A stretch of 64,000 nt of DNA from a virus (IMGVR_UViG_3300006916_000044:1-64000); one strand, 5' to 3'. Positions 8,814-29,176 are shown, counted from the stretch's first letter. Made by a program: numbers and translations. Notes: generated by a model from the sequence alone, not told the origin.

Positions 8814-9715
8814 TGAGTGTATCACATAAATATAGAACGTTTGATGAATTATTAGAATCAGTTAAAGTAGACTTTAATACATATAATTTAGAGGGAATGA
8901 TAGAACCTCAACAATTAATTAAAGTTGCTATTAGAGTTAACTATGATCTTGGTTTACGTATTAACAGAACAAATAGTGCTGTAATAGATATAGAAAATAA
9001 TAAAGGACAATTACCATCAGATTTTCAAACATTAAACTTTGCTGCTATTTGTGGTAAATATAGAATTAATACAACTACTCCATCGGGCACTACTACAGAA
9101 ACACAACCTACTACTTATACTCCTGAGCCTGGTTATACAACTCCTTGTGAGGATGGTAAAACATGTAAAGATGTTTGTGTAGTAAAACCATGTAAAGATG
9201 ATAGCTCAAAAGATTACATTGTTGTACAAAGAGTAGGTCCAAGCACGTATAGAGAATTTCATACTTTTATTCCATTAAGAATTGCTGATACATCTGGTGC
9301 GTATTGTACAACAGAATGTCCTAATCTTGGTGTAAGTGCTGTAGATTTTGCTGAATTAAAAGATGGTTTTATTTTAACCAATTTTAAATCAGGTAAAATA
9401 TTTTTAAATTATCAAGCTACATTAGAGGATGAAGGTGGTAACCTTTTAACTTTAGATCATCCTTATTGTAATGAATATTATGAGTATGCATTAAAATCAC
9501 GAATATTAGAAAATATGATATTTGCTGGTGAAAATGTAGTTAATCAATCTCAATTGATTGAACAAAGATTACGTGCTGCTAGAAATAATGCTTTAGGTTT
9601 TGTTAATACTCCAAACTTTGAAGAGTATAGAAAAATATGGGAAGTTAATAGAAAAGCACAGTACAACAAATATTATGATATGTTTTCAAGTTTTGCTACA
9701 AATAGAAGAAGTTAA
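8813..9715 (+). CDS. Putative tail tubular/ring protein (P22 gp4-like position)
   Basis: 300 aa, immediately upstream of the stabilisation protein. DGFILTNFKSGKIFLNY...DEGGNLL motif resembles crAss-like tail tubular proteins. Confidence 0.55.
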   Translation: MSVSHKYRTFDELLESVKVDFNTYNLEGMIEPQQLIKVAIRVNYDLGLRINRTNSAVIDIENNKGQLPSDFQTLNFAAICGKYRINTTTPSGTTTETQPTTYTPEPGYTTPCEDGKTCKDVCVVKPCKDDSSKDYIVVQRVGPSTYREFHTFIPLRIADTSGAYCTTECPNLGVSAVDFAELKDGFILTNFKSGKIFLNYQATLEDEGGNLLTLDHPYCNEYYEYALKSRILENMIFAGENVVNQSQLIEQRLRAARNNALGFVNTPNFEEYRKIWEVNRKAQYNKYYDMFSSFATNRRS

Positions 9716-12700: not shown

Positions 12701-15700
12701 TTCAACTTACTACACAAAATTGTTATTATTTTAGAGATCAACAAAATATAGATACAGATGGAAATTTAATTCCAATTACACCAATAGATAGTTTTAGTAC
12801 AGATACAGTATATGCAGGTGATTCTTATGTAACAAGATATACTGAAAAAACAATAATGCCATTTTTCTTTACTTTTTTAAAAGAAGGAAGAGATGGTATT
12901 CCATTTGATTATTCTAAATATGCAAACGTACCTTTTCCTAGATTTTGGATGAATACGGAAAAATTCCGTATGGATCAATTTGTAAGACCAATAACAACTT
13001 TAAGTTTTAATTGGAGTAATACTGAGGCATTACCTTCTGGGTATTATAATATGGATTGTCCAGAAAATGGAGGATATTGTGGTGCAACTCAATCTATAGC
13101 ATTTGGTGAAGGCGCATTAGCAGGATCAATTTTGCAAGATGGAACTACAAGTAATAATAATAGTACTGTAACTAATAATGGTACTGGTCTTCCTGGTGCT
13201 CCAGCACTTGGTGGTGGTCCTGCATTTACAGATTTAGCAGATCCATGGAATCAAGCAAATAATAATGCAGCATGGAATAATAGATTTTTAGTTGTAAATG
13301 TGGGTACTAATCTTGACGAAGTTCCTTATACTATAAGTATGAATTCTAATAATACAGAATGGACAATTTTAGGAGCAACTAGCGATACTGTAACATTTAC
13401 CCCTGATCCAAGTATAGCAACTATTTCAAATCCAGTTACAGTAAATCCAATGTTTGATTTAACAATATCTGATCATGGATATGCTGTTCCTTTGAATGCT
13501 GGAAATAATCCACAACCTAATCCAAGCGGATGTCCTGCAATTGGTTTTGTAGAATTTGTTGCAGAAGATTGTGATTTACCATTTGTACCTTCTACATTTT
13601 CTGGTGAAGGTACAGTAACTAATTCAAGATATTTATTTGATTGGTCAACTGGTCTTATTGTTGGAATGACAAATTTAGCTCCAGGTTCATATGCTTCTGA
13701 TAGTACAGCTGTGGTTCCTGGTCAAAATCCTGGTGATCCAATTAATGTTAATGATATAATTAATAATTTTTCTCAATTTAATTTTTCTAGTGATCCAGTT
13801 AGTGGTCAAATATCAAATTGTGGTAGTGGTTGTGGTACATCTACTTTACCAACTAATGCATTTCAAGTAGTAAATGGAGCTAACACATCAGGAGATGTTC
13901 AAGCTGGAGGTCCAGGTAATATTGATACAATAGTTGATGATGCTCAAAGTGCTGGAGAAAATTCTGGTTTTGCTGCAGGTAATACACAAATAAACAACTC
14001 TAATGCTACAGGAGGTTTATTTGTAATTAAAACAGGATTCATGTATACTCACAATTGTGGTATAAATGATTTTTGGGTTGAGTCATCAATGAATCTTGCA
14101 TTTAGAGATTATGAAGATGTACCAAGAAAACAACATTATGATGATGAAAATTATACAGACCTTGTAGAATTATTTCATACTAAAATTGTAAACTTTGATA
14201 ATTATTATTTTTATGATAGATCAACATCAGTAGATAAATTCTGGGGTTCATCTTGGGGACATATTCAAGAAAGTTATTATGATCCTATTGTTGCTGAGAC
14301 ATGTTTTATTAAATATCCTAAAAGATTATTATATTCAATTCCAGCTACCGGATTTAAAGATAAAGCACAATTACAAAGTAAGAATGATGCTAAACAAGAT
14401 TTTTGGAGAGTTTATTTAACTGAAAATTTTAGAGATTTTAAAGATAAAGTAACTACTATTAAACCAATAAATGAAACGGGTGCGTTAATATTTTTCCCAA
14501 CAATGTCTCCTAAATTGTTTCAAGGACAAGATAGATTACAATTATCTAATACAAAACTTACAATTGGTGACGGAGGATTATTTAGTCAAGCTTTTCAAAA
14601 TATAACAAACTCAGATATATCACATGAATATGGATCTTCAGAAAGTGCAAGAAGTGTTTTAAATACACCATCTGGTATTTATTTTGTTTCACAAGCACAA
14701 GGTAAAATATTTAATTATAAACCTGGTGGAGGATTAACACCTATATCTGATATAGGCATGAAGTGGTGGATGAATAAATTTTTACCATCAAAACTGTTAG
14801 AATACTTCCCTTTAATAGAAGATTGTCCTCAAGCAGTAGACAACCCTGTAAATGGTGCAGGTGTACAAACTGTATATGATCCAAATAATGATATAGTATA
14901 TTTCTGTAAAAAAGATTACTTACCATTACCACAGTATCAAGGTAATGAATGTATCCAATATATTCCTTGTGAAGGATTTGTTTATAATGCTACATTATGT
15001 GAAGGATTAGATCAAGTTCCTTCATGCCCTGATGGATACACATTAATACAAGATCCAGTAACAGGACAAAATGTATGCCAGTTAATGTATACTACACCAC
15101 CAATTCTTACACAAACAATAGATTATAATTATGGTGCTGCAATTGGTATAGGTACAGCTGCTGGACTTGCTCCTATAGGTAATAGTAGATTTGGTAGAGA
15201 TTGGCCAATTGTTATTGATAATGTTGCAGTTGATGGAATGCCCTTTGATCAAGCTGATCCTAGTACATGGCATTATATAACCGATAATGGAAATAATACT
15301 TTTTGGAGAAATTCTCCAGCTAATAATATGAATGGTATTGTTAACAGATTAATGCGTGGTGCTAATAATACTCCTGCAGGTCCATTTGCAACAGTAGAAT
15401 TTCAAATTAATATTCCTATTAGTAAAGTTGTACATCTTTTAGCAGCAGCAGATAATGGATTTTCAATTGATATAGATACTGGTGGAGGTTATACTACATT
15501 TGTAAATCCTGTTGATGCTACTTTATTTGGAGCTGTTACTAATGGAGGTGGTATATGGAACCCTCAAGCAGTTGCAGGTGGAAACTTTGCTTGGTTAAGT
15601 GGTGATCAACAAGAAGCATCTCAATATTCTAAAGCTTGGATATATAAATTAGAGCTACCTCAAGGATGTACAAAATTTAGAATGACAGGTACTAATGCTG

Positions 15701-17988
15701 GTTTATTAGCATCTCTTGCTGGTCTTGCTGCTGCAGTTATTGATGTTGAAGATTGGAATGATATACAAAACGCTACTTCATGGGAAGAATTACCTAAAAT
15801 ATGGGATTCAGAAAATTTTGATTTTATAGTACCAAATAGTTTAGAAGGTTTTACATGTAGTGAAGGATTCCAACAATTTACAGATGGTACTGATGGTAGT
15901 ACAGAAGCTTGTCCAGTATGTAGAGAAGAAGTTATAAGATATGATTGTGAATGTGAAGTTGATCAAACATCTGGAATACCAGGAGTTTTATTTGGCATAT
16001 GTCCAGTTGGTACAGATGGTGATGTTGGTAGTTCATATTGTCAATATGAAGCATATGAAGATGTAACACTATTAGATCAAACATTCCCAATAGAAGTACA
16101 AAACGAAAACTATTTTAAAGATATTTCATGGACATTAAGTTATGATCCAAAAGCAAAAGCTTGGTTATCATTCCATGATTGGCATCCTGAATTAGCATTT
16201 AATAGCATAAGACATTTTTTAACTTCAAAAACAGAAACAACTGATGTACCACAATGTCCTCCAGGTTATACTTGGAACGGTCAAGAATGTTGTTTGCAAT
16301 TAAATCATGAAGAATTAGCAGAAGTAACTGTAGATGAATTCATATCTCAATTAGAATTTGTTGATGCTACTGTAAATACTTGGGGTGAAACAGTTGATGT
16401 TGCTATTGTAATTGATGATTCAGGATCTACAACTCCAACACCAATGCCATCTCAATTAGCATTTGTTGAAGAATTTATAAATGGTATGACTCCAGGTATG
16501 TCTACTGGTGCAAATGTAGTAAGAATTAGTCATGGTAGATGGTCTACTAATAATGCTGTTGTACAAGCAATGACAAATGTTGCTGCTACAGCAATAACAA
16601 GTTTAGGTTTACCAGTAGGTGCTGGTGGTGGTACAATTCCTTATCCAGGTACTGGAGGTGGTACAAATTATAATCAAGCAGTTGCACTAGCTAATACTTT
16701 ATTAACAGGTAGTACTGCAGATAAAAGAATTGTATTATTTATAACTGATGCTACTCAAAATTCTCCAGCAAATCCAAATGATTTTACAAATGCAACTCAA
16801 TGTATTGCGGTATTTGCTAATGATGATGCAGTAGAATTAGCATGTAATAATTATGATGGTAACTTAAATACAATGATAACAGCAACTGGTTTAGCTGCTC
16901 CTCATAATGTTGCTACATGTGTTCCAACAGGTAATACTCCTCGTAATATGTATCATGTAGGTGGTCAAATACCTTCAGGTCAACCAGGATCTTTTGATTC
17001 AGTTGCAAATAATATTGTAAATGATTTAACAAATTGTAATTGTCCATCTGGTACAGTATTAGATACTAGTCCTGCAAATAATCCTTGTGAACCTGCACCA
17101 GCACCAGCTCCTAATTGCATTAGTTGCTCATGTCCAAGCGGATATACAATGATAGGTGATTGTAATAATTCAAATGAACCTCCTGTATGTAGAAAAATGA
17201 ATTGTGAATGTGAGTCACCATATTTTAATAATGATGAGACACTAACAACAACTGGTCAATGTGATGATATATATTTATACTATAATGAATTAACAGGTAT
17301 AGGAGATCCATCATATGTAAATAATGATCCATTATTCTGTCAATATGAATATATAGATTGTGTTCCTGCTAATTATGAAAACGGGTATTTCTGGAAACAT
17401 AATGTAAGAACAGATTTATTTAATAATTACTATGATAAAAATTATCCATGGGAAGTAGATATTATAGAACAAACTGGCCAAACAGTTACAACTCTTAGAA
17501 GTGTTGAATATCAAATGGAAGCATATTTATATCAGAATGAAGGTAAAGATAGATTCCATGATTTAGATTACAATTTTGATGAAGCTGTTATTTATAACTC
17601 TGAACAAGTATCAGGATTATTAGAATTAGTTTTAGAACCTAAAAATAATGTTCAGTTATCAATGTTATATCCTATTGTTGGACCAAACAGTATACAAACA
17701 TTATTTAGTAAAGTAGAACAAAAATATAGATTTAATCAATTTTTTGATGTAACAAATGATAGAGGTGAGTTTAGTGCTGCTACAAATACAATTTGGCAAA
17801 CAGATTGGGATGGATATGTTAGAACATTGAATCCAGCTAATTTAGATTATAATAAACCTCAACATCAAAGAAAAAAGTTTAGACATTACTTTAATCATGT
17901 ATTATTAAGAAAATCTGATGAAGCTGCTACAACAAGAAAAATGTTATTAAAATTAGAAAATACTAAATTAAATATATCTTTTAGATAA
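9718..17988 (+). CDS. Tail stabilisation/muzzle protein (P22 gp10-like) with inserted lectin-like and VWA domains
   Basis: FIKGMNKD start, LLRDEQYAFFIRF, GDSYVTRY, ISDIGMKWW and SWTLSYDP..WLSFHDWHP resemble crAss-like stabilisation proteins. VWA MIDAS motif DDSGS at ~16414. Confidence 0.75.
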   Translation: MAKKQQKNTGKKTAPSQKTDMINTNMFIKGMNKDTDSSYFDKQSWYHARNLINNSIDGDLGVVGNEPANLRCAEIPYTIIGGIHLYGDKWVIYSTNDTLSEIGLFDDSKCEYTMLVNDPCLNFNKDNLIIGAAKENFDCTWQVYWDDGLNPSRTLNIDNIPYVQVVDPNTPAGSSCINYINVEPLQLDCEKIRLAPLIDIPCIELEKADQGGLLENGSYQVYAAYCINDRPVTDYLGISNIQPIWSREDTQGSLTIKLSNLDTEFEQISIVVRSRIKGQATNTKLGIYSTQTQTINIDYINPELPKLLSSELQRRIPTYEKSDGMFVVNDYLIRSQPTEQFDFNYQPLANNIQTYWTSTAYPSAYYRNGGNKPTLLRDEQYAFFIRFVYNTGEKSKSYHIPGRAPTAADQVAVAGAGNNFDNSPLWRAGNTATQTPGDPFVASLIGTTTDDGGTITNGGQMGYWESTEVYSPTDPVRWANLCGLPIRHHKIPDESTGFVGTSLLNPLSETINILGVAFNNIAPPLDNDGNVIPNIIGYEILVGSRAGNRSILAKGIIKNMFRFRRTQSDGTAPGNGATNAASQSTGTGLMPNYPYNDVRTDPYLVGRDSNNQTQLPWYAQFATPPENNWHRGNMPQADGTGLAFVDPFAHTFHSPELNFSKLYLNPTEVKIYKVNSANVVGRFKKSEDHPKAKLLKNRAATIAALVGVGYALNEMRGKRDYKIDTMRSNSVGEFGAYAVGSGTHMSPFIGPGTAQAAGNVGVSSGSLWIGAAADLAFNSAVDIAAIFGAGKLARTVGTPIYQQVELASSALAAGHLGPRREVVYNGSDFSSVPSIMSIAIGIISFLNYVAVGGDKIIDLIMNLIGFQDYAMKYISHGYYNQEIAYQGVQFRNQIQRARYIKSALQSFDGVDVIQNNLRPSTVVFRTVDNWVSSRPDVNGLIDDTKFTIGSQCAGNGTSSMSWYNPGEEVESTAFANYGAFKTLMDNQYGQLDSIIQLTTQNCYYFRDQQNIDTDGNLIPITPIDSFSTDTVYAGDSYVTRYTEKTIMPFFFTFLKEGRDGIPFDYSKYANVPFPRFWMNTEKFRMDQFVRPITTLSFNWSNTEALPSGYYNMDCPENGGYCGATQSIAFGEGALAGSILQDGTTSNNNSTVTNNGTGLPGAPALGGGPAFTDLADPWNQANNNAAWNNRFLVVNVGTNLDEVPYTISMNSNNTEWTILGATSDTVTFTPDPSIATISNPVTVNPMFDLTISDHGYAVPLNAGNNPQPNPSGCPAIGFVEFVAEDCDLPFVPSTFSGEGTVTNSRYLFDWSTGLIVGMTNLAPGSYASDSTAVVPGQNPGDPINVNDIINNFSQFNFSSDPVSGQISNCGSGCGTSTLPTNAFQVVNGANTSGDVQAGGPGNIDTIVDDAQSAGENSGFAAGNTQINNSNATGGLFVIKTGFMYTHNCGINDFWVESSMNLAFRDYEDVPRKQHYDDENYTDLVELFHTKIVNFDNYYFYDRSTSVDKFWGSSWGHIQESYYDPIVAETCFIKYPKRLLYSIPATGFKDKAQLQSKNDAKQDFWRVYLTENFRDFKDKVTTIKPINETGALIFFPTMSPKLFQGQDRLQLSNTKLTIGDGGLFSQAFQNITNSDISHEYGSSESARSVLNTPSGIYFVSQAQGKIFNYKPGGGLTPISDIGMKWWMNKFLPSKLLEYFPLIEDCPQAVDNPVNGAGVQTVYDPNNDIVYFCKKDYLPLPQYQGNECIQYIPCEGFVYNATLCEGLDQVPSCPDGYTLIQDPVTGQNVCQLMYTTPPILTQTIDYNYGAAIGIGTAAGLAPIGNSRFGRDWPIVIDNVAVDGMPFDQADPSTWHYITDNGNNTFWRNSPANNMNGIVNRLMRGANNTPAGPFATVEFQINIPISKVVHLLAAADNGFSIDIDTGGGYTTFVNPVDATLFGAVTNGGGIWNPQAVAGGNFAWLSGDQQEASQYSKAWIYKLELPQGCTKFRMTGTNAGLLASLAGLAAAVIDVEDWNDIQNATSWEELPKIWDSENFDFIVPNSLEGFTCSEGFQQFTDGTDGSTEACPVCREEVIRYDCECEVDQTSGIPGVLFGICPVGTDGDVGSSYCQYEAYEDVTLLDQTFPIEVQNENYFKDISWTLSYDPKAKAWLSFHDWHPELAFNSIRHFLTSKTETTDVPQCPPGYTWNGQECCLQLNHEELAEVTVDEFISQLEFVDATVNTWGETVDVAIVIDDSGSTTPTPMPSQLAFVEEFINGMTPGMSTGANVVRISHGRWSTNNAVVQAMTNVAATAITSLGLPVGAGGGTIPYPGTGGGTNYNQAVALANTLLTGSTADKRIVLFITDATQNSPANPNDFTNATQCIAVFANDDAVELACNNYDGNLNTMITATGLAAPHNVATCVPTGNTPRNMYHVGGQIPSGQPGSFDSVANNIVNDLTNCNCPSGTVLDTSPANNPCEPAPAPAPNCISCSCPSGYTMIGDCNNSNEPPVCRKMNCECESPYFNNDETLTTTGQCDDIYLYYNELTGIGDPSYVNNDPLFCQYEYIDCVPANYENGYFWKHNVRTDLFNNYYDKNYPWEVDIIEQTGQTVTTLRSVEYQMEAYLYQNEGKDRFHDLDYNFDEAVIYNSEQVSGLLELVLEPKNNVQLSMLYPIVGPNSIQTLFSKVEQKYRFNQFFDVTNDRGEFSAATNTIWQTDWDGYVRTLNPANLDYNKPQHQRKKFRHYFNHVLLRKSDEAATTRKMLLKLENTKLNISFR

Positions 17989-20900
17989 TGAAATATAGCA
18001 AAGACGGATATAAAAGAAATAGTAAGGATAGAAATAATCCTTTTAATATAATACCATCAGGTAATATAACTATGAAAGGTGTAGACTTTCCTGTATTTGG
18101 TATGGATAACTTAGGTTATAGTAAAATTATGATGCCAGGTACTAATTATATATTTCCTGGTAGTTCTGTTTTTGAAGTTCCATTAGCAAGAGTTGGTATA
18201 GAATTACCAATATATCAAAATAAAGGAGAAGTTAATCTAGCTGAAAAATATAAATATATACCATCACAATTCTTTACTGTACCAGAAGGAGAGTTTACAT
18301 ATGATTGGACAAATAGAGATGGCACAAAAGAAACTAGAACCGGTGTTTATAATCCACAATGGTTTGAAGCAGGTTTTGAAGATTCAGATGCTTATTATGC
18401 TTTAAGTGATGATGAAAAAATTAATTTTGCTAATAATCCATATATAGATCAATACTCTGGTGATATGCTTCATCCTCTATTGTGGGATGAAGAAAATTTA
18501 GAAAAAGAAAATAAAAAAAGATTTCTTCATGGATTATATCAAAAAATGTATACTAAACAAGATGACGGTAGTTACATTTTAAATCCAGAATATGAAACTG
18601 CACTAGGTGATGCTAGGTATCTTACTACAACAGATGTTCCTTATGCAGATATTCCAGATGAAGGAGTATTTTCTAGTACATTAGCTGCTGATCCAAATAA
18701 TGAAATGTGGTATAAAGAGTTAAAACCAGAGCTTTATACTGAAGGTAAAACAATGACAGGATACGCATGGGATGAAGATAGTCAAGAATATGTATATACA
18801 CCAGATATGACATATAAAGATTTTCTAAAACAGTACAAATACATTAAAGATATGCCTGGAATGGAAGGTATTTCTAGAAGAGATTATAAAAAAAGATTAC
18901 AACAAGGAGATATATATTGGCCTCAACTTCAAAGTCCAACGCAAATAGCTCAATTTGATCAGCAATATAAATCAATAATGAATCCAATTAAAAAGGAGGA
19001 TATAGAATTACAAAAAGAATTTTTTGATAATGCTATAAGTGGAGATTTATATAAACAAAAATTAATTGATCAGGGTTATGAAAATGTTGATGAAATCATA
19101 AACATGAGAAAAAATGCTTTAGCTAATTCTAATGTAATGTATGATCAAGACTCTTCATCTTATTTAGATGAAGCTTATGATCGTGATCCTAATTTAATTC
19201 AAAAAATTCTTGATAAAGTATCTTTCTTAAATGATCAGTATAAAGAGTCAGGTATAGATTATGATTATAAAGATGTGTTTTTTGCAAATCCTTATTATAC
19301 AAGAATAGGTGAAGAAAGAACAGATGCAGATTATGATTATGATAGCATAAAAGCAAGAAATAATGCTGAACCAAATATATATACTGATGATCAATGGGGA
19401 GCTATAATACAATCACAATATGGCCATACAGATGTTCCAGCATTTAGAAATCTGAGTAAACAAATAATGCAAGGTGAAACAGGTAGTAGAACTTATACAT
19501 CAGGATCAAGACAAGGAGATGTTGTATTAGATCCAAGACAAATTCAAGGTTTAAATATAGATATGGGCTTTGAAGGAACTTCCCCTCAATTAAAACAACA
19601 ATTACAAAATGTATTAGCTCATGAGTTAGGTCATCAAATGGGTTCTAGTAGAAATGATATAGATTATAATTTAAATGAAAATGATTATAATTATATACAA
19701 GACAGAATGAATGTTTCTGATGATGCAAGTTCTCATGATCAATCTGTATATGAAAGAAAAGCAGATTTAGAAGCTTTAAGATATGATATGTATAGAACTA
19801 TTGGATATGATTATAGTAAAGATGTTTTAACTCCTGAAGTACTTGAACAATATAAACAATACATTAAAGATAATCCTAGTCCAAATTTACCAACTGAAAG
19901 AATGTTTCAGTTTTTTAATGATGAAGATATTATAGATATTAATAATACTGTAGCACAAAATTATGAAATAGGTGATGACATTTCTGATAATCTTAATTTA
20001 TATTTTGATTTACCTTTAACACAAGCTAAATATGGAACAGAAGATTTTGATGGAAAATTATCTAAATTACAAGATAAAATTAATGTTTATTTAAATGACC
20101 CAAGTGGAAGAGCAAAAGCTTTTTCTGACAGTGATGAAGAATTAACAAACATTGATAATTTAAGACATGCAATGGCAGGTAGATATACTGCTGAAGAACT
20201 TCAAAATTTAGTAAAAGCAATTCCTTATGGAATTGGTAATATCTTAGATACTACAGGTGTTGACAAATTATTTGGATTTTTAGGTTCTAATGCACTTGGT
20301 GTAGGTCATGAACTTAGTACATTAGTTAAAGATGAAAGACCTTTTTTAGCAGCTCTTCAAGAAAGTGGAGAAGATGTTTTTAATAATTTTGTTGGATCAA
20401 TAGTTGGTTCAACAGACGTAAGTTCTGAAAAAAAAGATAATATACTACGTTATCTTTCAGATAATAATCTTTTACCTGATGGATATGTACAAACTGATCC
20501 AGATTTTTCAGAAAATGTATATTGGAAAAATGAAGATGGTTCTATAAAAAAACCTAATTTTAAAAGTTATAAAGATGGTGGTGAAAATGATGAAGACACT
20601 CTAGCTTATTCTAGACTTTTAAAAAGATTTATACCAAGTGCTGCTGTTCTTGCAAAAAATCCTTTACTAACATTTGCAGCATCAATGCTTTATCCTAAAG
20701 GTGCAGGAAAAGGTTCAACTTTACAAACGCCTTCTTTAGAACAACAATATCAAAATTATTTAAATACTACTACTCCTGAAGAAAGAGTAAAAAATGAATT
20801 ACAATATGAACTAATGACAGGTAGACCTTTTTATTTTAATCCTATACCAATATCAAATATTAAAGAACACGGAGGTGAACATAGTGGTTTTGATTGGAAA

Positions 20901-22709
20901 GGTTATTTTAAAGGAGAGCAAGGTTTTATTCCTGATTATGGAGGGAAGTCTACAACACAAACATATCTAGATAATAAAGACGATGTACAAAAAGGACTTG
21001 ATTATGTATCTATGACAGGTATACCAGTAGTAAGTCAATTTGCTGGATATGGTAGTGCAGGTATTGATTTTGGTGATGCAGCTATGGCATATGCACAAGG
21101 TGATTATGATACCGCAAAAAAAGAATTTGCTAAAGGAACTACAGGAGCTGTAATATCTACAATTCCAGGTGGAAAAACTGTAGCTGGATTAACAAAAGCT
21201 GGTTTACAAGCAACTGGTAAAAATTTAGCTAAAGGTACAATAAAAGGTGGAGTAAAAAGTACAATCAAAAATGCAATAAATGAAACTGATGATACACCTT
21301 TATATGCTGAAAATCTTGAAGAACCAATTTATGGAGGTATGCTTCCAGAAACTACGGTAACACCAAAAACAAAATATGGTACAGAGTTGCCTATAGCACA
21401 AACAGGTACTTTTAAAACTTTAGCACAAAAAGGATTAAATGCATATAACAAATATATATTTAACAAATCTAAAGATGCTTTTGGTATATCAGGACGTATG
21501 CTAATGGATGATCTTACACTTCCTGTTGCAAATAGTGCTAATTTAATGTTACATAGATCATTAGATAATACTTATATTCCTAATTTATCTGGCTCAGACT
21601 TAGATAATTATCATAAATTAATAACTCAATATACTATAAATTCTGAACCATTTAAGTTTTCTTCATTTCCAGAAAATCAAGAAGTAAGTTTTCCTATGGA
21701 ACCTTCTTTTATGAATACAGATGGAACTCCTCTTTACACTTTTGATAATAGATTTGCAAGAGAATTAGATAATATTATTAATTCAAATAAAGTTATATTT
21801 AAAGGTGATCAAAATAAACCTCTTACATTAGTAAGAGAGTTTGAAGGATTTACTGATGTTCCTGTTGGCAAAGATTTTTATTTTACTAAAGATTATTATG
21901 GAGATATGAATAAACTTAATTCATATATAGATGCATTAAAATCTGGAAAAACTTTTAATCTTGGTGATATATCTTCATGGTCTGTAGGTGCTAATACAGG
22001 TTTAAATAGGTTTGGAAGTAATAGATTTATTATTGAAAATTTTCCATTAAGTCAAAATGCATTAATAAATAAATATGACTCACCATTATTTTCAAAAAAT
22101 CAAAAAGGTATATTCCGTGAAAGAGAATTATTATTGCCATCAACAACACAATTTAAAGTAAAAGATATACAATTTAATGTACCAAGAAAACCTTATCATT
22201 ATACTAAAGATGATGCTGGTAAAATTACAGACTTTAGTCCACATTATGGTGCTGATATTATATTAGATGTACAAAACAACACTAAAAATATTAAATTCAA
22301 AAAGGAAGGTGGACAAACAAAATATAAAAAATCTGTATTTAATAAAAATAAAATGTCTTTATCTGATCCTAGCAGATTAATAAATCAAATGCTAAAACAA
22401 GGCATATTTAAATCTGAGTTTAAAATGGGAGGTGAACAAAAATTAAGTAATGGATATACAATTAAAAAAGAATTTGATAATACAAATAATATACCTTTTA
22501 TATCATATACAAACGAACCTGATATAGAGGGGAGAGTTTATTATGAATCTGATGATGATGCTCAAATAAATGTTATTGATATAGAAACAAAATTAAATCA
22601 AATAAGATCTAAACATGAAAGAACTAAAAAAATAATTCTTAAACGTAGAGAAGGTAAAGTTTTATCTAATACAGAAAAACAGCATTTAAACTCATTAGGG
22701 TTATTGTAG
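17988..22709 (+). CDS. Polyvalent cargo/ejection protein: zincin + Wnt/lipocone-like + pre-toxin-like + ADP-ribosyltransferase domains
   Basis: Motifs HELGH..E; DNLRH..HE..DVFNNFVG; LDYVSMTGIP..AYAQGDY; LVR..SSWS..RERELLLP. First gene after the muzzle gene, where crAss-like cargo genes lie. Confidence 0.65.
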   Translation: MKYSKDGYKRNSKDRNNPFNIIPSGNITMKGVDFPVFGMDNLGYSKIMMPGTNYIFPGSSVFEVPLARVGIELPIYQNKGEVNLAEKYKYIPSQFFTVPEGEFTYDWTNRDGTKETRTGVYNPQWFEAGFEDSDAYYALSDDEKINFANNPYIDQYSGDMLHPLLWDEENLEKENKKRFLHGLYQKMYTKQDDGSYILNPEYETALGDARYLTTTDVPYADIPDEGVFSSTLAADPNNEMWYKELKPELYTEGKTMTGYAWDEDSQEYVYTPDMTYKDFLKQYKYIKDMPGMEGISRRDYKKRLQQGDIYWPQLQSPTQIAQFDQQYKSIMNPIKKEDIELQKEFFDNAISGDLYKQKLIDQGYENVDEIINMRKNALANSNVMYDQDSSSYLDEAYDRDPNLIQKILDKVSFLNDQYKESGIDYDYKDVFFANPYYTRIGEERTDADYDYDSIKARNNAEPNIYTDDQWGAIIQSQYGHTDVPAFRNLSKQIMQGETGSRTYTSGSRQGDVVLDPRQIQGLNIDMGFEGTSPQLKQQLQNVLAHELGHQMGSSRNDIDYNLNENDYNYIQDRMNVSDDASSHDQSVYERKADLEALRYDMYRTIGYDYSKDVLTPEVLEQYKQYIKDNPSPNLPTERMFQFFNDEDIIDINNTVAQNYEIGDDISDNLNLYFDLPLTQAKYGTEDFDGKLSKLQDKINVYLNDPSGRAKAFSDSDEELTNIDNLRHAMAGRYTAEELQNLVKAIPYGIGNILDTTGVDKLFGFLGSNALGVGHELSTLVKDERPFLAALQESGEDVFNNFVGSIVGSTDVSSEKKDNILRYLSDNNLLPDGYVQTDPDFSENVYWKNEDGSIKKPNFKSYKDGGENDEDTLAYSRLLKRFIPSAAVLAKNPLLTFAASMLYPKGAGKGSTLQTPSLEQQYQNYLNTTTPEERVKNELQYELMTGRPFYFNPIPISNIKEHGGEHSGFDWKGYFKGEQGFIPDYGGKSTTQTYLDNKDDVQKGLDYVSMTGIPVVSQFAGYGSAGIDFGDAAMAYAQGDYDTAKKEFAKGTTGAVISTIPGGKTVAGLTKAGLQATGKNLAKGTIKGGVKSTIKNAINETDDTPLYAENLEEPIYGGMLPETTVTPKTKYGTELPIAQTGTFKTLAQKGLNAYNKYIFNKSKDAFGISGRMLMDDLTLPVANSANLMLHRSLDNTYIPNLSGSDLDNYHKLITQYTINSEPFKFSSFPENQEVSFPMEPSFMNTDGTPLYTFDNRFARELDNIINSNKVIFKGDQNKPLTLVREFEGFTDVPVGKDFYFTKDYYGDMNKLNSYIDALKSGKTFNLGDISSWSVGANTGLNRFGSNRFIIENFPLSQNALINKYDSPLFSKNQKGIFRERELLLPSTTQFKVKDIQFNVPRKPYHYTKDDAGKITDFSPHYGADIILDVQNNTKNIKFKKEGGQTKYKKSVFNKNKMSLSDPSRLINQMLKQGIFKSEFKMGGEQKLSNGYTIKKEFDNTNNIPFISYTNEPDIEGRVYYESDDDAQINVIDIETKLNQIRSKHERTKKIILKRREGKVLSNTEKQHLNSLGLL

Positions 22710-22737
22710 TAAAATTAGTTAAATTGGTTAATTTTTA

Positions 22738-22753
22738 GTATATTAATAATGTA
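22738..22753 (+). promoter_or_regulatory. Conserved intergenic motif copy 3 (GTATATTAATAATGTA)
   Basis: Same 16-bp consensus, upstream of ATG 22776. Confidence 0.6.
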
Positions 22754-22775
22754 ACATGTTGTATATAGACAAATT

Positions 22776-25715
22776 ATGAAAAATAAAAGAAGAAATAAAA
22801 ATATTCAAACTTCAGAAGTTTATTCAATGCTTCCTGAATATCAATATGTTACAGGCATGCCAAGATATAAAAATGGTGCAGAGTATTTTAGTTATGATGA
22901 TTACATGACTGATTCAGTATTAGCACAAGTTGGAACAGAAACACAACTTCCACCAAATTTAATTAAATATAACACAAACTCAGAAAATCCTGGTAATACA
23001 CTTTTTGGAACTAAAGTAGAATATGGTGTACCAGAATTTTTACAAAAAAGTAGTCCATTATCTTCTCTTCTAACTGGAATAGGTAAGTTTCAAAATACAG
23101 GACAAAGATTTAAAAATGCATTTAGAAATATAAATCCTAAAACAGGTAACCCTTATAGCAAAATGGATTTTGCTAGAAATACACTTACTAATACTACAGA
23201 TGAAAATGTTTTAATTAATATGCCTAATCTTATCAGTGCTTATGATAAAAAAGGAAATATTATAGATGAAAAAAATACTGCTGAAAATTTATTTATAAAA
23301 CAAAATAAAGCTAAAAGTGATTATTTTAATACATTAGCAAAACAACATTCAGAAACATATGTTGATAATGAAGGAAATCCGTTATTAAGTCAACAAACAA
23401 TGGATGAATTTGGAAATGTTACTTATACTAATCCAGATGGAAATAGAACAGTTGGTGATAAAGCACAAGAACATCTTAAAGATACAAATACACAAAGAAT
23501 AAAATATAATGATGACTTTACAGAAGTAACAGAATTTACAAGATATGATGATGATGGAAACAAACAAATAGAAACATATGATCCAGATAAAAGATATAAG
23601 GAAATGTCATATACAGATACATTTAATATTCAAGATGAATTGAATCTTGGTACTGGATCAATATTAGGATCAGAAGGTTCCCAATATCTTAAAGGTGGAG
23701 GAGATTTTCCAAGAAATAATCTTGCTGCATTTATATACGGTGGAGAAGAAATGCCTCAAGCACAATTTGGGTTTAAAGGAAACTATAAACCGTATACACT
23801 AAGAGATGCTAATCTTACTGTAGGAACTAAAACAATAGCTCCATTAAATAGAATAACAAAGAATTTACCATATGGTACTGTAGACAAAGGTATTCAACAA
23901 GGATATGGATTTAATCTTAATATACCTCTTGTCTCAGGTCAATTTCTTAAAACACCAACATCACAATTAACAGGTAATATAAATTTAGGTAATACTGCAT
24001 ATAGAACACCTGGTAGTAATAGATATGCTACAAAGTATGTAGATTCAGATATGCAAATTATGCAGGATAATGCTCCATCACATTTACATAATGTAGAGTC
24101 TGCATATGGTGCATACCAAGATTATTCTGCTCCTTATATGACTAATGTGGGTACACGTGTTGGTATTGGTGGTGACTATACATATTCACCTTCAGGACTT
24201 GGTAGAGGTACTGCTCTTGATTTAGGTGCTGATTTTGGATTAAATTACAGTAGAGGTGAACTTGGTTCTGATTTTGCATATGTAGATAAATTTGATAATT
24301 TCCATGGTTTACCAAATGACGCAGCTATAAATATTTTTGAAACGGTAACACCTAGTCCTACATCTATGATGGGTCTTGATGCTGGAGTATATGCAGGTTT
24401 AAGAAATCAACGTATAGGACTTTCAGGTGGTTTATATGGTAATATTGGTGGATTAAGAACAACAAATCCAGGAATGCGTTTAGGAGTTAAAGGTAACATA
24501 CCATTATATAGAGGAAAAGGAAACATGCGTGGATTCAATGTTTCAGCTACTCCAGATGTAAGTTATGATTTTCAATCAGGTGCACCTAGATTTAATTTTG
24601 GAATTAGTGCAGGACTTAGAGATGGTGGAGAAAATTTACAAAAATATCAAGGTGATGTAGGCCCAAGTGAAACAAGTGAAAAAACATATACATTTAATGG
24701 TCAACAAGTTAGCAAAGAAGAGTTTGATAGACTGTCTAAAGAAGCACAAAATGAACTTAACGCTGGTACACCTGATTGGGCTAAACAAGGATCATTTGGA
24801 GAAACATTTAAACCTTATACCTTTGCAGATAATAATGAAATTACTTCATCTGATATAGACGAAATTACAGTTTCAGGTGCAAATAATGAAGAAGTTAGTT
24901 CAACAGTAAATCCTGTTATGACTACTCCTTCTATGGATGAAATTGCTGGTGGTACTCCATTAGATTTAAATTTAGGAACTCCAGATTATATGAATCCTCT
25001 TGGGATAAATCAAGAAGTACCAACTAATCCTAATCAAATTACTACATATGAAGTAAGTAATGAAGGTACACCTACTGATAATACTAATATACCAGTTGTA
25101 GAACCACAAAGTCCAGCTGCTCCTTTAACAATGGACTTTGGTTTAAAAGATCTTACTGATGAACAAAAAGCTAATATGACTGATGCAGAAATAAGAGCTT
25201 ATGAAAGAAATGATAGAGCAACTGAAATATATAATGAAGTAAGTGCAGGAATAAATACCGGTGCTACTGGAACAGCTAAACAATTACTACAAGAAGGATC
25301 TAAAGTAATTACAGATGCAGCTGATATTATTAATCCTATTCTTGAAGAAGGCAACCGGGTGGTAAATGAATTAGAAACAAAAAATGAACAAGATGAAGTT
25401 AGTGACTTTATGAATCCTATTGAAGCAAGTAGAGGTGATAAAGGTGATTTTGATGTTAACACAGGAGTATATAGAGCTACAAGTTTAGGATATGGTGATG
25501 GACCTAGAGGTCAAATTGCACAAATGGGTGCTGAAACAAATGGTATGCCTGAACCAGATTATAAAAGTTTGCAAAGATTTTTAAATCAAGCTGTGGTTGC
25601 ATATAATCCTCAAACGTTAATGATGCAAGCAAAACATGGTGATGAAATTATTGATGCAGATATGAAACTAATAAAAGATTTAATGGCAGCAGGTGCTGAT
25701 TTTGAAATTATATAA
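22776..25715 (+). CDS. Putative cargo/ejection protein with central beta-barrel-like segment
   Basis: 979 aa. Recurring xxG(G/A/T)E motifs, Gly/aromatic amphipathic strands at ~23760-24630, and position in the cargo block. Confidence 0.5.
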   Translation: MKNKRRNKNIQTSEVYSMLPEYQYVTGMPRYKNGAEYFSYDDYMTDSVLAQVGTETQLPPNLIKYNTNSENPGNTLFGTKVEYGVPEFLQKSSPLSSLLTGIGKFQNTGQRFKNAFRNINPKTGNPYSKMDFARNTLTNTTDENVLINMPNLISAYDKKGNIIDEKNTAENLFIKQNKAKSDYFNTLAKQHSETYVDNEGNPLLSQQTMDEFGNVTYTNPDGNRTVGDKAQEHLKDTNTQRIKYNDDFTEVTEFTRYDDDGNKQIETYDPDKRYKEMSYTDTFNIQDELNLGTGSILGSEGSQYLKGGGDFPRNNLAAFIYGGEEMPQAQFGFKGNYKPYTLRDANLTVGTKTIAPLNRITKNLPYGTVDKGIQQGYGFNLNIPLVSGQFLKTPTSQLTGNINLGNTAYRTPGSNRYATKYVDSDMQIMQDNAPSHLHNVESAYGAYQDYSAPYMTNVGTRVGIGGDYTYSPSGLGRGTALDLGADFGLNYSRGELGSDFAYVDKFDNFHGLPNDAAINIFETVTPSPTSMMGLDAGVYAGLRNQRIGLSGGLYGNIGGLRTTNPGMRLGVKGNIPLYRGKGNMRGFNVSATPDVSYDFQSGAPRFNFGISAGLRDGGENLQKYQGDVGPSETSEKTYTFNGQQVSKEEFDRLSKEAQNELNAGTPDWAKQGSFGETFKPYTFADNNEITSSDIDEITVSGANNEEVSSTVNPVMTTPSMDEIAGGTPLDLNLGTPDYMNPLGINQEVPTNPNQITTYEVSNEGTPTDNTNIPVVEPQSPAAPLTMDFGLKDLTDEQKANMTDAEIRAYERNDRATEIYNEVSAGINTGATGTAKQLLQEGSKVITDAADIINPILEEGNRVVNELETKNEQDEVSDFMNPIEASRGDKGDFDVNTGVYRATSLGYGDGPRGQIAQMGAETNGMPEPDYKSLQRFLNQAVVAYNPQTLMMQAKHGDEIIDADMKLIKDLMAAGADFEII

Positions 25716-25717
25716 TT

Positions 25718-28700
25718 ATGAAAATTAAATTAAAAAATATACCAGAAGGATTTGAAATAAAAAACGGTAGGCTAATTAAAAAAATGGCTGAAGGTGGTAC
25801 CGTAAATAATACTTTACAACCTGTACCACGTGATGAAGCTAATGTTGAAGCAGAAAAAAATGAAACTGTTTTAACTGATGCAGATCAAGATGGTTTTTAT
25901 GAATTATATAATATTGGTGGTAAAAGACATTCACAAGGTGGTACACCATTAAACTTACCAGAACAATCTTTTATTTATTCTGACACAAGAAAAATGAAGT
26001 TCACAAAAGAAGAACTTAAAGAACTTGGTGTATCAGCATCTAAAAGATTAACTCCTGCAGCAGTTAGTAAAAAATTTCCTATTAACAAATATATGGAAAT
26101 TCTTAAAGATCCTAGCTCAGACGACATTGCAATTCAAAGTGCTGAGGCTATGATAAAAAAGAACAAAATAAAACTTTCACAAATTGCTTTTATGCAAGAA
26201 AGAAAAAAAGATTTTGAAGAAGGTTTACCATTAGCTGCATATCCATATCTATTAGAAAATGGTATAGATCCAAAAGAGTTTGAAATGAAGATTGAACAAG
26301 CAAAACAATCTGAACAAAAAATGGCTCAAGGTATGCAAGAAGGTATGCCACCACAAGGACAACCATCACCTCAAGAAATGGAACAAATGGCCATGGCTAT
26401 GCAACAGCAAAATCAAGGTATGCCTCCTCAAGGTATGATGCCTCCAATGCCTCAAATGGATATGGCTATGGGTGGTATGGAATTACGTGATTTTATATAT
26501 GGTAAAGAAGGTAAAGAAGTACCTACTAACAAAGGATTTCAAGCATTACCACCAGCAGTACAAAAAAATATTATTGATAATATGCAAAATGGTGGACAAC
26601 CGTCAATTATACCTGCAGAAATGATGGAGCAGTATAATGCATGGAGGACAAAAAATAGATTAAAAGACATACCTGAAATACAGATGATGTTTTTAAATAC
26701 TATGAATAACCAGGCTCCTATAATGCCAGGTCATTCTACTATGTTTAAACCTATTGGACCTATGCCAGATGGTTTAAAAGAAATGAAATCAGGAACATTA
26801 CCTGGTTGGAAAGAAACATTAAAAGGTTTTATTCCTGATGATTATGATTATGTAGTAGATGATCCAATGCAAGGAATGAAGGATTTTATAAATTATATAA
26901 ATCCATTTGAAAAAGGTGGTGAGTTTAAACCACACATGATGTTTGATCCTAAAACAGGAAAAGGATACATGGCTAATAAAATGGAAGATCATTTACGTAT
27001 GGCTGACATGGGTTATCTTCATGAAGATGAAATGAAGAAAGCTGGTAAAAAAATGCAAAAAGCTTCTTATGGTGGACCAAAAGGAGAAGCAGCTTATTTA
27101 GAAAGAAGAGATGCTGCTATAAAAAAAGCTATGGCTGAAGAAGCTCAAATGGGTACAGAAACACAACAACTTACTGCTGAGCAACAACAAATGCAAGCAT
27201 TAGTTGATGCACAACAACAATTAGCTCAACAAAGGCAAATGATTATGATGGCTTATCAGCAAAATCCTGAACAGTTTTCTAGTCCTGAAGCTCAAGCCAG
27301 TCTTGAAGAAAGATTAATGTTGTTAGATCAAAACTTAAATCAAGTACAACAACAATTAAAAGTATTGCAAGAAAAAGAATTTTTGCAAGAAACAATAATT
27401 CCTTTATCTGAGTTTGTAGGAGAAACAAATACTCCAGCAAGTTTAAATAATCAAAATTATGATTTTTTTAATCCTAAGTTATTAACGGCAAGTAATGGAA
27501 AAGAGCTACCAACTTATCAAGAAGGAAATGGTGAAGATTCTTTTTCTTATGAAAGCACTGATGATTCTGGTTATCCAATATCATTAAATCCTTATTTTAG
27601 AACATCCCCAACTAGAAGATATATAGATGGTCAAGATAATCCTAATTATGATGCAGAGTTTGAAAGTAATATAGATAAAGGTATAGATGTTCATCAAAAC
27701 TTTTATGATATTATGATGCAAGATAACTTTAAAGGAGTTAGAGATGCGTGGATAAAAGCATATAAAGATTTAGATGATCCTAATAAAATAACAGGTAAAT
27801 CAGATAAAGAGTTATATAAAGCATTTAACGATATGAATATATTGTTTAATGCAGCATTTACAGCTGGTGTAGGTTTTAAAGATGCTGATATTAAAGAACA
27901 ATTAAAAAGAAATGCAGAAAAATTAGGAATGGAAGTTCCTAGTGAAGAACAAATTAAAATGTATCAAGGTATGTATAATGCCTTAGCTACTGTAAAAGAA
28001 ACTGGTACTGATGAGCAAAAGAATTTACTAAAACAAGTTAATGTAAATTATAGTGATAACACTGGTGGTGCTTATGAAATTGTACCAGGTAGTGGTAAAT
28101 TTGTTTCTAAAATTGATGGTAAAGTTGGTGATAACACAAGTCAACAATTTGTTTCTGTAACTGATGCTGAAAGAGAAGAAACAACTGTAGTTGAATATGC
28201 TTGTGATGAAAAAACCAAAAAAGCAAAGATACAAGAGTGTATGGAAAAAGGTCTTCCTTTTGAAGAAGCAACTTGTGAATGCGGTAAAGAACCAGTCATA
28301 ACACCAGCAGGAGAAATTCCACCATATTTAACGTTTCCAGGTGATGACATGAAAGTGGGTGCTTTAGCGGCACTTACAATGCAGAGAGATAAAAAATATG
28401 GAAGAATGCAAAACTATGATCCTCTTATGAGAGATCCTGGTTATGTAGATGATAGAGCTGCTGTAGCTGCTCAAACTGCTTTAGCTAATCAAGCTATGGC
28501 TGTTTCTAGAGATCCTTCTATGGTACAAGGTGCTGCGCAAGATCAAATAGATAAAATTCAAGCTAATAGATATGCAACAAACACTAAAATATTTGACAAC
28601 ACTCAAGCTTATAATGTTGCAGAAATAAATAAAGCTAGGCAAATGAATGATCAATTTATGTCAGATTATATGGATATGGTTAATACTGTAGATCAAGAAT

Positions 28701-29176
28701 ATGATAATGTAAAAGCACAAGATATGATGAATCTTGTTGATGCAGAAATAACTAGAATGGATAATGCTGATAAATTGTATGAACTTAATTTAAGAAATCC
28801 AAATTATTATTTTGATCCTCAGCAACATAGAACTATATTTCAAAACCCTGAAGCACTAGAAGCATTTAGAGGTAATCCTAATATGCAACCTGTAACATTA
28901 GAAGACGCAATTGCATCTTGTAAAAAATCAGGAGTACCAGAAAATCAACTTGTAAACTGTGCTAAATTAAAAATGGAATCTGTAAATAATCCATCAAATG
29001 TTGATTATACAAGAGATGAATTAGCAAATAATAATATTGAAGATAATAATCAAAATGATGATAACACAACAACTGGTAAATATGGAGGATCATTTAAATA
29101 TGGAGGAGCAGTTAGAGAACAAGATTTAATAAACAGTAGAATTAAATTAAGAAATTGGATAATGGGTAATAAATAA
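25718..29176 (+). CDS. Putative cargo/ejection protein (Met/Gln/Pro-rich linkers)
   Basis: 1152 aa. N-terminal NVEAEKNETV..GGKRHSQGG..FIYSD module, low-complexity MQ/P stretches, repeated xxGG motifs. Confidence 0.55.
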   Translation: MKIKLKNIPEGFEIKNGRLIKKMAEGGTVNNTLQPVPRDEANVEAEKNETVLTDADQDGFYELYNIGGKRHSQGGTPLNLPEQSFIYSDTRKMKFTKEELKELGVSASKRLTPAAVSKKFPINKYMEILKDPSSDDIAIQSAEAMIKKNKIKLSQIAFMQERKKDFEEGLPLAAYPYLLENGIDPKEFEMKIEQAKQSEQKMAQGMQEGMPPQGQPSPQEMEQMAMAMQQQNQGMPPQGMMPPMPQMDMAMGGMELRDFIYGKEGKEVPTNKGFQALPPAVQKNIIDNMQNGGQPSIIPAEMMEQYNAWRTKNRLKDIPEIQMMFLNTMNNQAPIMPGHSTMFKPIGPMPDGLKEMKSGTLPGWKETLKGFIPDDYDYVVDDPMQGMKDFINYINPFEKGGEFKPHMMFDPKTGKGYMANKMEDHLRMADMGYLHEDEMKKAGKKMQKASYGGPKGEAAYLERRDAAIKKAMAEEAQMGTETQQLTAEQQQMQALVDAQQQLAQQRQMIMMAYQQNPEQFSSPEAQASLEERLMLLDQNLNQVQQQLKVLQEKEFLQETIIPLSEFVGETNTPASLNNQNYDFFNPKLLTASNGKELPTYQEGNGEDSFSYESTDDSGYPISLNPYFRTSPTRRYIDGQDNPNYDAEFESNIDKGIDVHQNFYDIMMQDNFKGVRDAWIKAYKDLDDPNKITGKSDKELYKAFNDMNILFNAAFTAGVGFKDADIKEQLKRNAEKLGMEVPSEEQIKMYQGMYNALATVKETGTDEQKNLLKQVNVNYSDNTGGAYEIVPGSGKFVSKIDGKVGDNTSQQFVSVTDAEREETTVVEYACDEKTKKAKIQECMEKGLPFEEATCECGKEPVITPAGEIPPYLTFPGDDMKVGALAALTMQRDKKYGRMQNYDPLMRDPGYVDDRAAVAAQTALANQAMAVSRDPSMVQGAAQDQIDKIQANRYATNTKIFDNTQAYNVAEINKARQMNDQFMSDYMDMVNTVDQEYDNVKAQDMMNLVDAEITRMDNADKLYELNLRNPNYYFDPQQHRTIFQNPEALEAFRGNPNMQPVTLEDAIASCKKSGVPENQLVNCAKLKMESVNNPSNVDYTRDELANNNIEDNNQNDDNTTTGKYGGSFKYGGAVREQDLINSRIKLRNWIMGNK

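Follow-up and report, generated by a model that had tools for sequence, protein, structure and literature searches.

A recurrent glycine tag at the module joints of three predicted cargo proteins in a marine crAss-like phage

Introduction

No phages are more abundant in the human gut than crassviruses, which are also common in the sea, and the structure of one of them, crAss001, raised the question of how several megadaltons of protein are packed and ejected. In crAss001, the gene for the muzzle protein (gp44) is followed by those for the cargo proteins C1 (gp45) and C2 (gp46) and for the polymerase-associated gp47, gp49 and gp50 (Bayfield et al. 2023, PMC10172136). Here, we analyzed a stretch of 64,000 nucleotides (IMGVR_UViG_3300006916_000044:1-64000), termed the window, which corresponds to the initial 64 kb of a record that spans 91 kb, is ~79% complete and derives from an uncultured marine crAss-like phage. 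Beginning immediately 3' of its muzzle gene, three consecutive genes, A (17988..22709, 1573 amino acids (aa)), B (22776..25715, 979 aa) and C (25718..29176, 1152 aa), encode large proteins interspersed with a short glycine-containing peptide, called the tag below. All genes and tags described for the window lie on the + strand.

Short conserved peptides at the seams of exchangeable protein parts are known from polymorphic toxins, in which VENN in CdiA and DPxGL in Rhs border exchanged variable cassettes and the Rhs border is also a self-cleavage site. The tag resembles these peptides as a short conserved element at cassette seams. However, polymorphic toxins have one seam before the C-terminal tip and a linked immunity gene, whereas A, B and C have many seams per chain, are predicted virion proteins and have no immunity gene. 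A second precedent is provided by the substrates of prohead proteases: IPI-III of T4 are cut at L/I-x-E, and inner body proteins and polymerase subunits of phiKZ are cut at S/A/G-x-E. Like A, B and C as we interpret them, these are packaged and injected proteins with a short, Glu-ending site near the N terminus after a leader. They differ in that no prohead protease gene was recognized in a complete relative of the window's phage (genome G001, 114,846 bp, ~90% nucleotide identity to the window), that capsid and scaffold-like proteins carry no tag and that the Glu of the tag is not conserved in gut crassviruses. Finally, polyvalent proteins, known from phages and conjugative elements, are giant proteins in which unrelated effector domains are strung together, with a zincin-like metallopeptidase (MPTase) as a hub domain (Iyer, Burroughs, Anand, de Souza, Aravind 2017, PMC5512222). 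Homologues of A are likewise multidomain, with a zincin alone being recognizable in A itself, but the polyvalent study describes no conserved joint peptide and does not contain the word ‘linker’. The tag is described neither there nor in the crAss001 structure paper (PMC10172136) or the phi14:2 polymerase preprint (10.1101/2020.03.07.982082), and literature searches gave no other paper.

Our analysis argues strongly for A, B and C as modular cargo (ejection) proteins of the virion, of the crAss001 C1 (gp45)/polyvalent kind. They appear as chains of independently folding modules with a tag in a flexible linker at each joint and near the chain ends, and modules are gained, lost and moved by in-frame tag-to-tag joins. 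The three proteins are probably packed into the particle and injected. As a joint peptide common to marine and gut crassviruses, the tag offers a concrete handle on cargo packing and ejection: it predicts the sites of flexibility, cutting or binding in cargo chains, delimits dozens of injected modules exactly, thus aiding folding and function assignment, and explains the fast diversification of cargo proteins.

Tag consensus and enrichment

A previous sequence-only reading of the window had listed 21 strings in A, B and C as a recurring linker motif; all 21 were recovered in the translations at their assigned nucleotide positions. The accompanying consensus, K/Q-x-G-(G/T/A)-E, held in part, with 8-9 of the 21 strings fitting it and the remainder representing looser x-G-G forms. 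In its strict form, [KQ]-x-G-[GTA]-E, the pattern occurs four times in A, three times in B and once in C, a total of eight against a shuffle expectation of ~0.5 (0.15 + 0.13 + 0.25; 300 shuffles per protein). The other 23 open reading frames (ORFs) of the window (~17,800 aa) contain two, with shuffle expectations summing to ~1.3. The enrichment in the cargo proteins, for which the earlier reading had proposed a comparison with non-cargo proteins as a check, is real. In G001, three strict hits each were found in the A and B orthologues and two in all remaining ORFs combined.

A set of 95 non-redundant homologues gave 195 unique sites, from which we derived a wider consensus, L(-6) P(-5) x A/Y(-3) K/Q(-2) x G(0) G/T/K(+1) E/Q(+2) hydrophobic(+3), with L/I/F/V occupying position +3 at 52% of the sites. 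The full unit spans ~15 residues (hydrophobic-[K/R]-Y-G-G-x-L-P-x-A-Q-x-G-[T/G]-E). Half forms ([A/Y]-[K/Q]-x-G-[G/T/A]-E) and doubled tags (GTELPIAQTG, GGEEMPQAQFG, GKELPTYQEG and GIELPIYQNKGE) are frequent. Codons vary from site to site, indicating conservation at the protein and not the DNA level.

Other identities of the element were tried and rejected. Codon variation at the tags ruled out a DNA-level recombination signal, Shine-Dalgarno-like internal starts were excluded as the G-T-E forms have no GGAGG and no consistent Met follows, and a sortase LPXTG-type signal did not agree with the spacing. An expectation-maximization motif search converged on a Q/M/P-rich low-complexity region, and an iterated hidden Markov model drifted to a single subtype.

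Tags coincide with module borders

The proposal that the motif divides the three proteins into modules was borne out by four independent lines: homologue break points, an indel in G001, copies of one module of A and a structure model of C. The resulting architecture of A comprises, in order, modules M1 (aa 1-74), M2 (~82-674, the zincin module), M3 (~686-858), M4 (~867-956) and M5 (~1141-1435), with a middle region separating the last two and a conserved C-terminal module beyond residue 1483.

For the 95 homologues, using alignments with at least 45% identity, 57 of 615 internal clusters of alignment ends lay at most five residues from a strict tag, compared to 10.6 +/- 3.1 expected at random (2000 random trials, maximum 22). 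Restricted to the window's A, B and C with equal weight per end cluster, the test was not significant (P 0.08-0.5) because weak alignments add many single ends. The heaviest break points at tags were residues 74, 685 and 861 of A and 398, 447 and 478 of C. In A, 52 alignments end at ~74, where the tag GIELPIYQNKGE (aa 70-81, 18195..18230) concludes the conserved M1; 22 end at ~685, at the joint between the zincin module and M3 (LPLTQAKYGTE, aa 675-685, 20010..20042); and 19 end at ~861, at the M3/M4 joint (KSYKDGGE, aa 859-866, 20562..20585). In C, 22 end at ~398, at the tag opening a small module of residues 402-446 (FEKGGE, aa 397-402, 26906..26923), 15 end at ~447, next to the tag closing it (KASYGG, aa 448-453, 27059..27076), and 19 end at ~478, where EAQMGTE (aa 475-481, 27140..27160) opens the large C-terminal part. 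Two more of the heaviest break points lie near a tag, at residues 240 and 305 of C (11 and 13 residues away, respectively). Two of the four break points of B (56, 290, 330 and 770) were not at a strict tag (290 and 770).

Relatives swap, lose or move modules at the tags, an outcome for which the sequence-only reading had suggested to look. Residues 1-74 of A were found in ~60 proteins at 54-84% identity that differ downstream. The segment 685-865 directly follows the N-terminal module in P0009-P0012 and is missing from P0004, which matches 1-686 and 857-1573, while residues 70-681 are located at 1588-2198 of P0005. Residues 861-963 are present in P0029, a match that ends within the tag at the end of M4 (NIKEHGGE, aa 957-964, 20856..20879). 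The C-terminal part common to P0006-P0008 (A 1127-1573) is opened by the double tag TKYGTELPIAQTG (aa 1128-1140, 21369..21407). Two further tags of A are KFKKEGGQ (aa 1436-1443, 22293..22316) and EFKMGGE (aa 1477-1483, 22416..22436); the latter precedes the conserved C-terminal module, and both of its Gly residues are invariant in 23 aligned homologues. The A family has a constant N-terminal module, variable cassettes and, after FKMGGE, a constant C-terminal module.

A tag-to-tag event was also observed directly between close relatives. G001 lacks window positions 19994-20569, corresponding to module M3, with the tags on both sides of the gap (QAK/YGTE and SYK/DGGE) joined in frame to QAK/DGGE at a Lys codon inside the tag. 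The DNA shared at this seam is TAAA.

Querying a library of 1.8 billion proteins with M3 (A 690-860) yielded 250 cluster representatives. Among embedded copies, a [YFM..]-[KQ..]-x-G-G tag follows within 40 residues in 68 of 111 (random windows, 15%), and [AVY]-Q-x-G precedes the module in 47 of 120 (random windows, 12%). Stand-alone copies (173-204 aa) end in ...Y-K or ...Y-R-E without a glycine tag. The tag, therefore, belongs to the joint and not to the module fold. Five of the stand-alone proteins in this size range (P0208, P0219, P0222, P0238 and P0245) consist only of a basic leader that begins with MAFxLRS and M3.

An AlphaFold model of C, built with a 76-sequence alignment, has a mean predicted local distance difference test (pLDDT) score of 71 and shows confident modules split by segments of pLDDT <50. 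Mapping the tags onto this model, another of the previously suggested checks, placed seven of the eight listed tags in these predicted flexible linkers, which make up 23% of the chain (binomial P ~2e-4), although the low pLDDT at the tags may partly stem from the mosaic alignment and to this extent counts against such a placement. The tags KKMAEGG (aa 21-27, 25778..25798), whose G26 and G27 are kept in at least 90% of the 76 homologues, and MAMGGME with IYGKEGKE (aa 249-267, 26462..26518) have low pLDDT values, <50 in the case of the former. The sole listed tag outside the linkers is NMQNGGQ (aa 288-294, 26579..26599), which sits at pLDDT ~70 in a loop after helix 279-290. C further contains the double tag ASNGKELPTYQEGNGE (aa 591-606, 27488..27535) and, before a 22-residue C-terminal helix, GKYGGSFKYGG (aa 1120-1130, 29075..29107). 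A corresponding fold of A 640-1573 from a 23-row mosaic alignment was unusable (mean pLDDT 35); for A, the placement of tags in linkers is hence based on the module borders.

Two smaller comparisons were uninformative. In six homologues, one of 14 tag sites fell inside a Pfam domain where 1.8 were expected, a test of low power at 13% domain coverage. Among five B orthologues, tags and flanks showed no conservation contrast as the flanks are equally conserved at the 55-74% identity of these proteins.

Tag sites in B lie near both chain ends and at two internal positions. RYKNGAE (aa 30-36, 22863..22883) and LAQVGTE (aa 49-55, 22920..22940) are located near the N terminus, the double tag FIYGGEEMPQAQFG (aa 319-332, 23730..23771) and GLRDGGE (aa 613-619, 24612..24632) are internal, and IAQMGAE (aa 914-920, 25515..25535) is followed by MQAKHGDE (aa 950-957, 25623..25646), 22 residues short of the C terminus.

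Comparison with gp45 and genomic setting

Tags of a related form are present in crAss001. In gp45, A-[F/Y/E/D]-G-G occurs at residues 208, 262, 331, 372, 426 and 561, with G-G near the ends at 19 and 827, while gp46, gp47, gp49 and gp50 contain no such tags. Matches of gp45 to other crassviruses in tblastn searches end at 222, 254/264, 329/342, 369-372 and 422-427, yielding pieces bounded by tags (264-329, 222-342, from 369-372 and from 422-427). Cryo-electron microscopy resolved two gp45 pieces, one within the tail barrel (214-245) and the other on the portal (425-552) (PMC10172136). Both fall between tags. The portal-bound domain is modelled from residue 425 onward, which is the Ala of an A-F-G-G tag.

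A, B and C share with gp45 a locus just past the muzzle gene, a large size, with gp45 being mostly unmodelled in crAss001, a short basic leader at the N terminus with a G-G tag behind it and recurrent hydrophobic-x-G-G tags that bound shared pieces. C also has a similar layout of N-terminal leader, tag and conserved domain (C 28-205). In contrast, the glycines of the marine tags are preceded by A-Q/K and followed by Glu, and three such genes are present here versus one in crAss001. A BLASTP comparison of C 1-220 with gp45 (E 0.047) covered a low-complexity stretch only. A profile of the N-terminal domain of C gave no domain-level gp45 match, the only hit being a 16-residue G-[KR]-[RK]-H-S-x-G-G stretch in gp47 of p-crAssphage. 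Without significant similarity to gp45, A, B and C appear to be of the same kind and position rather than proven family members. As a lead, C 28-205 might be a portal-binding domain, with a sequence match that is not significant. Within this region, N-I-G-G-K-R-H-S-Q-G-G at aa 65-80 (window 25910-25960) is similar to N-G-R-K-H-S-Q-G-G of p-crAssphage gp47 (L012:3107-5680) and also resembles E-G-G-S-H-E-E of the portal-bound gp45 domain.

The position of the three genes agrees with this comparison. Pfam identified tail ring protein 2 at 8142-8813, ring protein 1 at 8813-9715 and the muzzle protein (2756 aa) at 9718..17988, which places A, B and C where the crAss001 cargo genes stand. Downstream of C follow, in order, D (1121 aa), a 5148-aa DFDID protein and an 1846-aa protein. 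The 5148-aa protein (window 32604-48050) is a gp47-like part with a zincin motif, HEAFH, at aa 2169, fused to a polymerase part with the crass-type motif DFDID at aa 3885. The order of ring protein 2, ring protein 1, muzzle, A-D and DFDID protein matches that of gp43-gp47 in crAss001. A, B, C and D gave zero Pfam matches above threshold and zero PHROG matches, and a tblastn search with A found no match among cultured phages, so that no cultured close relative is available.

Compared to G001, the window's record misses ~24 kb (G001 11508-35413), so that the head module of the window's own phage lies outside the record. This region of G001 carries the head genes for terminase, portal, an acidic scaffold-like protein of 438 aa and capsid protein, plus a 1646-aa protein. 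The 438-aa protein, encoded between the portal and major capsid genes (L006:18152-19465, - strand), is Glu/Lys-rich, probably helical and without a family match; it is likely a scaffold.

Possible functions of the tags

We tentatively favor the reading that the tag is recognized for cleavage of the chain, which would release modules as separate proteins. Cutting would occur after or during ejection, rather than in head maturation, and would allow wall-, membrane- and cytoplasm-acting modules to separate. The candidate enzyme would be a particle-borne protease, either the zincin of the RNA polymerase cargo or an unrecognized module. Several points, all indirect, favor cutting. The tag is conserved far beyond the needs of a plain flexible linker. 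Its G-x-E-hydrophobic portion recalls the head protease sites of T4 and phiKZ introduced above, and the hydrophobic residue after the tag would suit a zincin. Putative zincins occur in A as well as in the RNA polymerase cargo (HEAFH; KP06_gp45 annotation). Related ideas have been put forward without data, namely autoproteolysis by a zincin for polyvalent proteins (PMC5512222) and proteolysis for fused crAss polymerase polyproteins (bioRxiv 10.1101/2020.03.07.982082). Cleavage at the tags, if real, would amount to a polyprotein strategy undescribed for tailed phages without a head protease.

Several observations weigh against cutting. No cleavage product was seen anywhere. G001 has no recognizable head protease, with Peptidase_S77 being absent and with PHROGs and Pfam returning only terminase, capsid and structural proteins for its head-module proteins. 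For the earlier suggestion of maturation-protease sites, no prohead protease gene was thus recognized in this complete relative. The zincin of A is optional among homologues, with the full module in P0004, P0005 and P0018 and weak 25-30% matches in seven more. The seam of the fused 5148-aa protein (~aa 2300-2350), which others proposed as a cutting place and which we located by its match to the C-terminal zincin of crAss001 gp47, contains no tag; if the zincin cuts there, it does not use this peptide. In gut crassviruses, the residue after G-G is not conserved, so that Glu cannot be a universal P1. Moreover, gp45 has been read as a single chain bridging tail and capsid, with 12 copies per resolved piece (PMC10172136).

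Published peptide-mass lists for bands 1-9 of a crAss001 virion gel (Shkoporov 2018, supplementary file 14) were re-analyzed. Clean assignments were obtained, with gp44, gp34 and gp40 for bands 1-2, gp47 and gp50 for band 3, gp49 and gp44 for band 4, gp20 for band 5, gp26 and gp22 for band 6, gp22 and gp25 for band 7, gp25 for band 8 and gp23 for band 9. The portal (12 copies, 93 kDa) was clear in band 5. gp45 (12 copies, 91 kDa) was not convincingly found in the bands from 77 to >300 kDa, at most a weak hint for cutting; speaking against it are three to four weak gp45 mass matches in bands 5 and 6 and the possibility that gp45 co-migrates with the abundant gp22 and gp26. For the two top bands (>300 kDa), masses match muzzle gp44 with gp34, gp40 and gp35. 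Such a composition points to a tail complex resistant to sodium dodecyl sulfate, consistent with disulfide bonds listed in the crAss001 structure paper.

A more far-reaching form of the cleavage reading, which we regard as less likely than not, treats the tags as the address code of a dedicated Crassvirales processing system. An injected protease or self-cleavage at G-G/G-x-E would cut every joint during entry, one gene would deliver separate effectors to the periplasm, membranes and cytoplasm, and new effectors would be plugged in by flanking tags. If true, a viral effector polyprotein system would operate in a tailed phage.

It is also quite possible that the tag is kept in the chain as an uncut, recognized joint. 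It could be bound by a conserved partner, such as a virion component, DNA, a host chaperone or an envelope component, or provide a defined start and stop for unfolding, with each module being stored, threaded through the portal, tail barrel and muzzle and refolded individually. The same positional evidence (break points, C model, M3 copies and G001 indel) applies here, and the failure to find a head protease in G001 fits as well. The modelled residue 425 of gp45, being part of a tag, shows that at least one tag is partly ordered. In addition, the crAss001 study proposes partial cargo unfolding during extrusion, with one gp45 chain running from tail to capsid (PMC10172136). On the other hand, a mere hinge needs no conserved sequence, and the polymerase cargo also needs threading yet is devoid of tags. 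The symmetric crAss001 maps resolve gp45 214-245, 425-552 and an unassigned 14-residue helix but not the tags (PMC10172136), so that the tags are not seen to dock onto the 12-fold portal or rings.

Distinctly less probable than cutting or an uncut joint is that the tag acts as an evolutionary coupler only, having no biochemical partner and serving to generate viable chimeras by tag-to-tag joins and faster cargo diversification, in a manner comparable to the border motifs of polymorphic toxins. The tag-to-tag indel between near-identical genomes, the wide shuffling of modules between conserved N- and C-terminal modules and the stand-alone modules without a tag would all agree with such a role. 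However, since codons vary and few bases are shared (TAAA at the seam), the tags offer almost no homology for recombination. Selection for evolvability alone is weak and would not account for the conservation of A/Y, K/Q, G, G/T, E and L-P-x-A-Q from marine to gut phages, and tags also occur near chain ends, where nothing is joined.

Least probable by far is a capsid-loading code, also part of the earlier reading, in which tags bring each cassette into the procapsid: B, C and gp45 each have tags close to the N terminus behind a short basic leader, reminiscent of the T4 capsid-targeting sequence, but tags are missing from the largest of the predicted cargo proteins (the 5148-aa polymerase fusion, D and the 1846-aa protein) and from the crAss001 virion proteins gp46, gp47, gp49 and gp50, and one signal per chain would suffice where six to ten are present.

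Module content of A and C

Of the recognizable enzyme domains that had been ascribed to A, the zincin received support. Its HExxH motif and a Glu further along the chain (H545, E546, H549 and E589) show almost no variation across 11 aligned homologues, all of which have a tag immediately after the module. Pfam matches to Matrixin, Reprolysin and Zincin_1 were below threshold (E 0.03-0.15). Other assignments were not confirmed: neither Pfam nor PDB sequence searches supported an ADP-ribosyltransferase at 21405-22307, and sequence searches did not substantiate a Wnt-like domain. A complex prediction for A 84-680 (11-row alignment) with a 35-residue linker around YKDGGE scored 0.00 and counts neither way. 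ART-PolyVal, SLT, LysM, YkuD, PG_binding_1 and kinase-like domains occur in homologues with which A has modules in common, which points to a place of the A family among polyvalent proteins.

For C, Foldseek of the whole model against the PDB retrieved nothing at E <= 0.001, and a PDB profile search with the C alignment returned poly-Q proteins only, via a Q/M/P-rich stretch. This Q/M/P/G-rich low-complexity stretch (aa 195-250, window 26300-26470) lies between the conserved N-terminal domain and the next tag, that at aa 249-267. Its composition, not its sequence, is kept in the 76 homologues, and it attracts the false poly-Q matches. The small module at aa 402-446 (window 26921-27055; PHMMFDPKTGKGY...GYLHE) is modelled as two beta-hairpins plus helices at pLDDT 82-91. 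It is 74% identical over 35 residues to a portion of a hypothetical protein (L004:2152-3540) of the Methylophilales myophage Melnitz (Kyanoviridae), where no G-G tags flank it.

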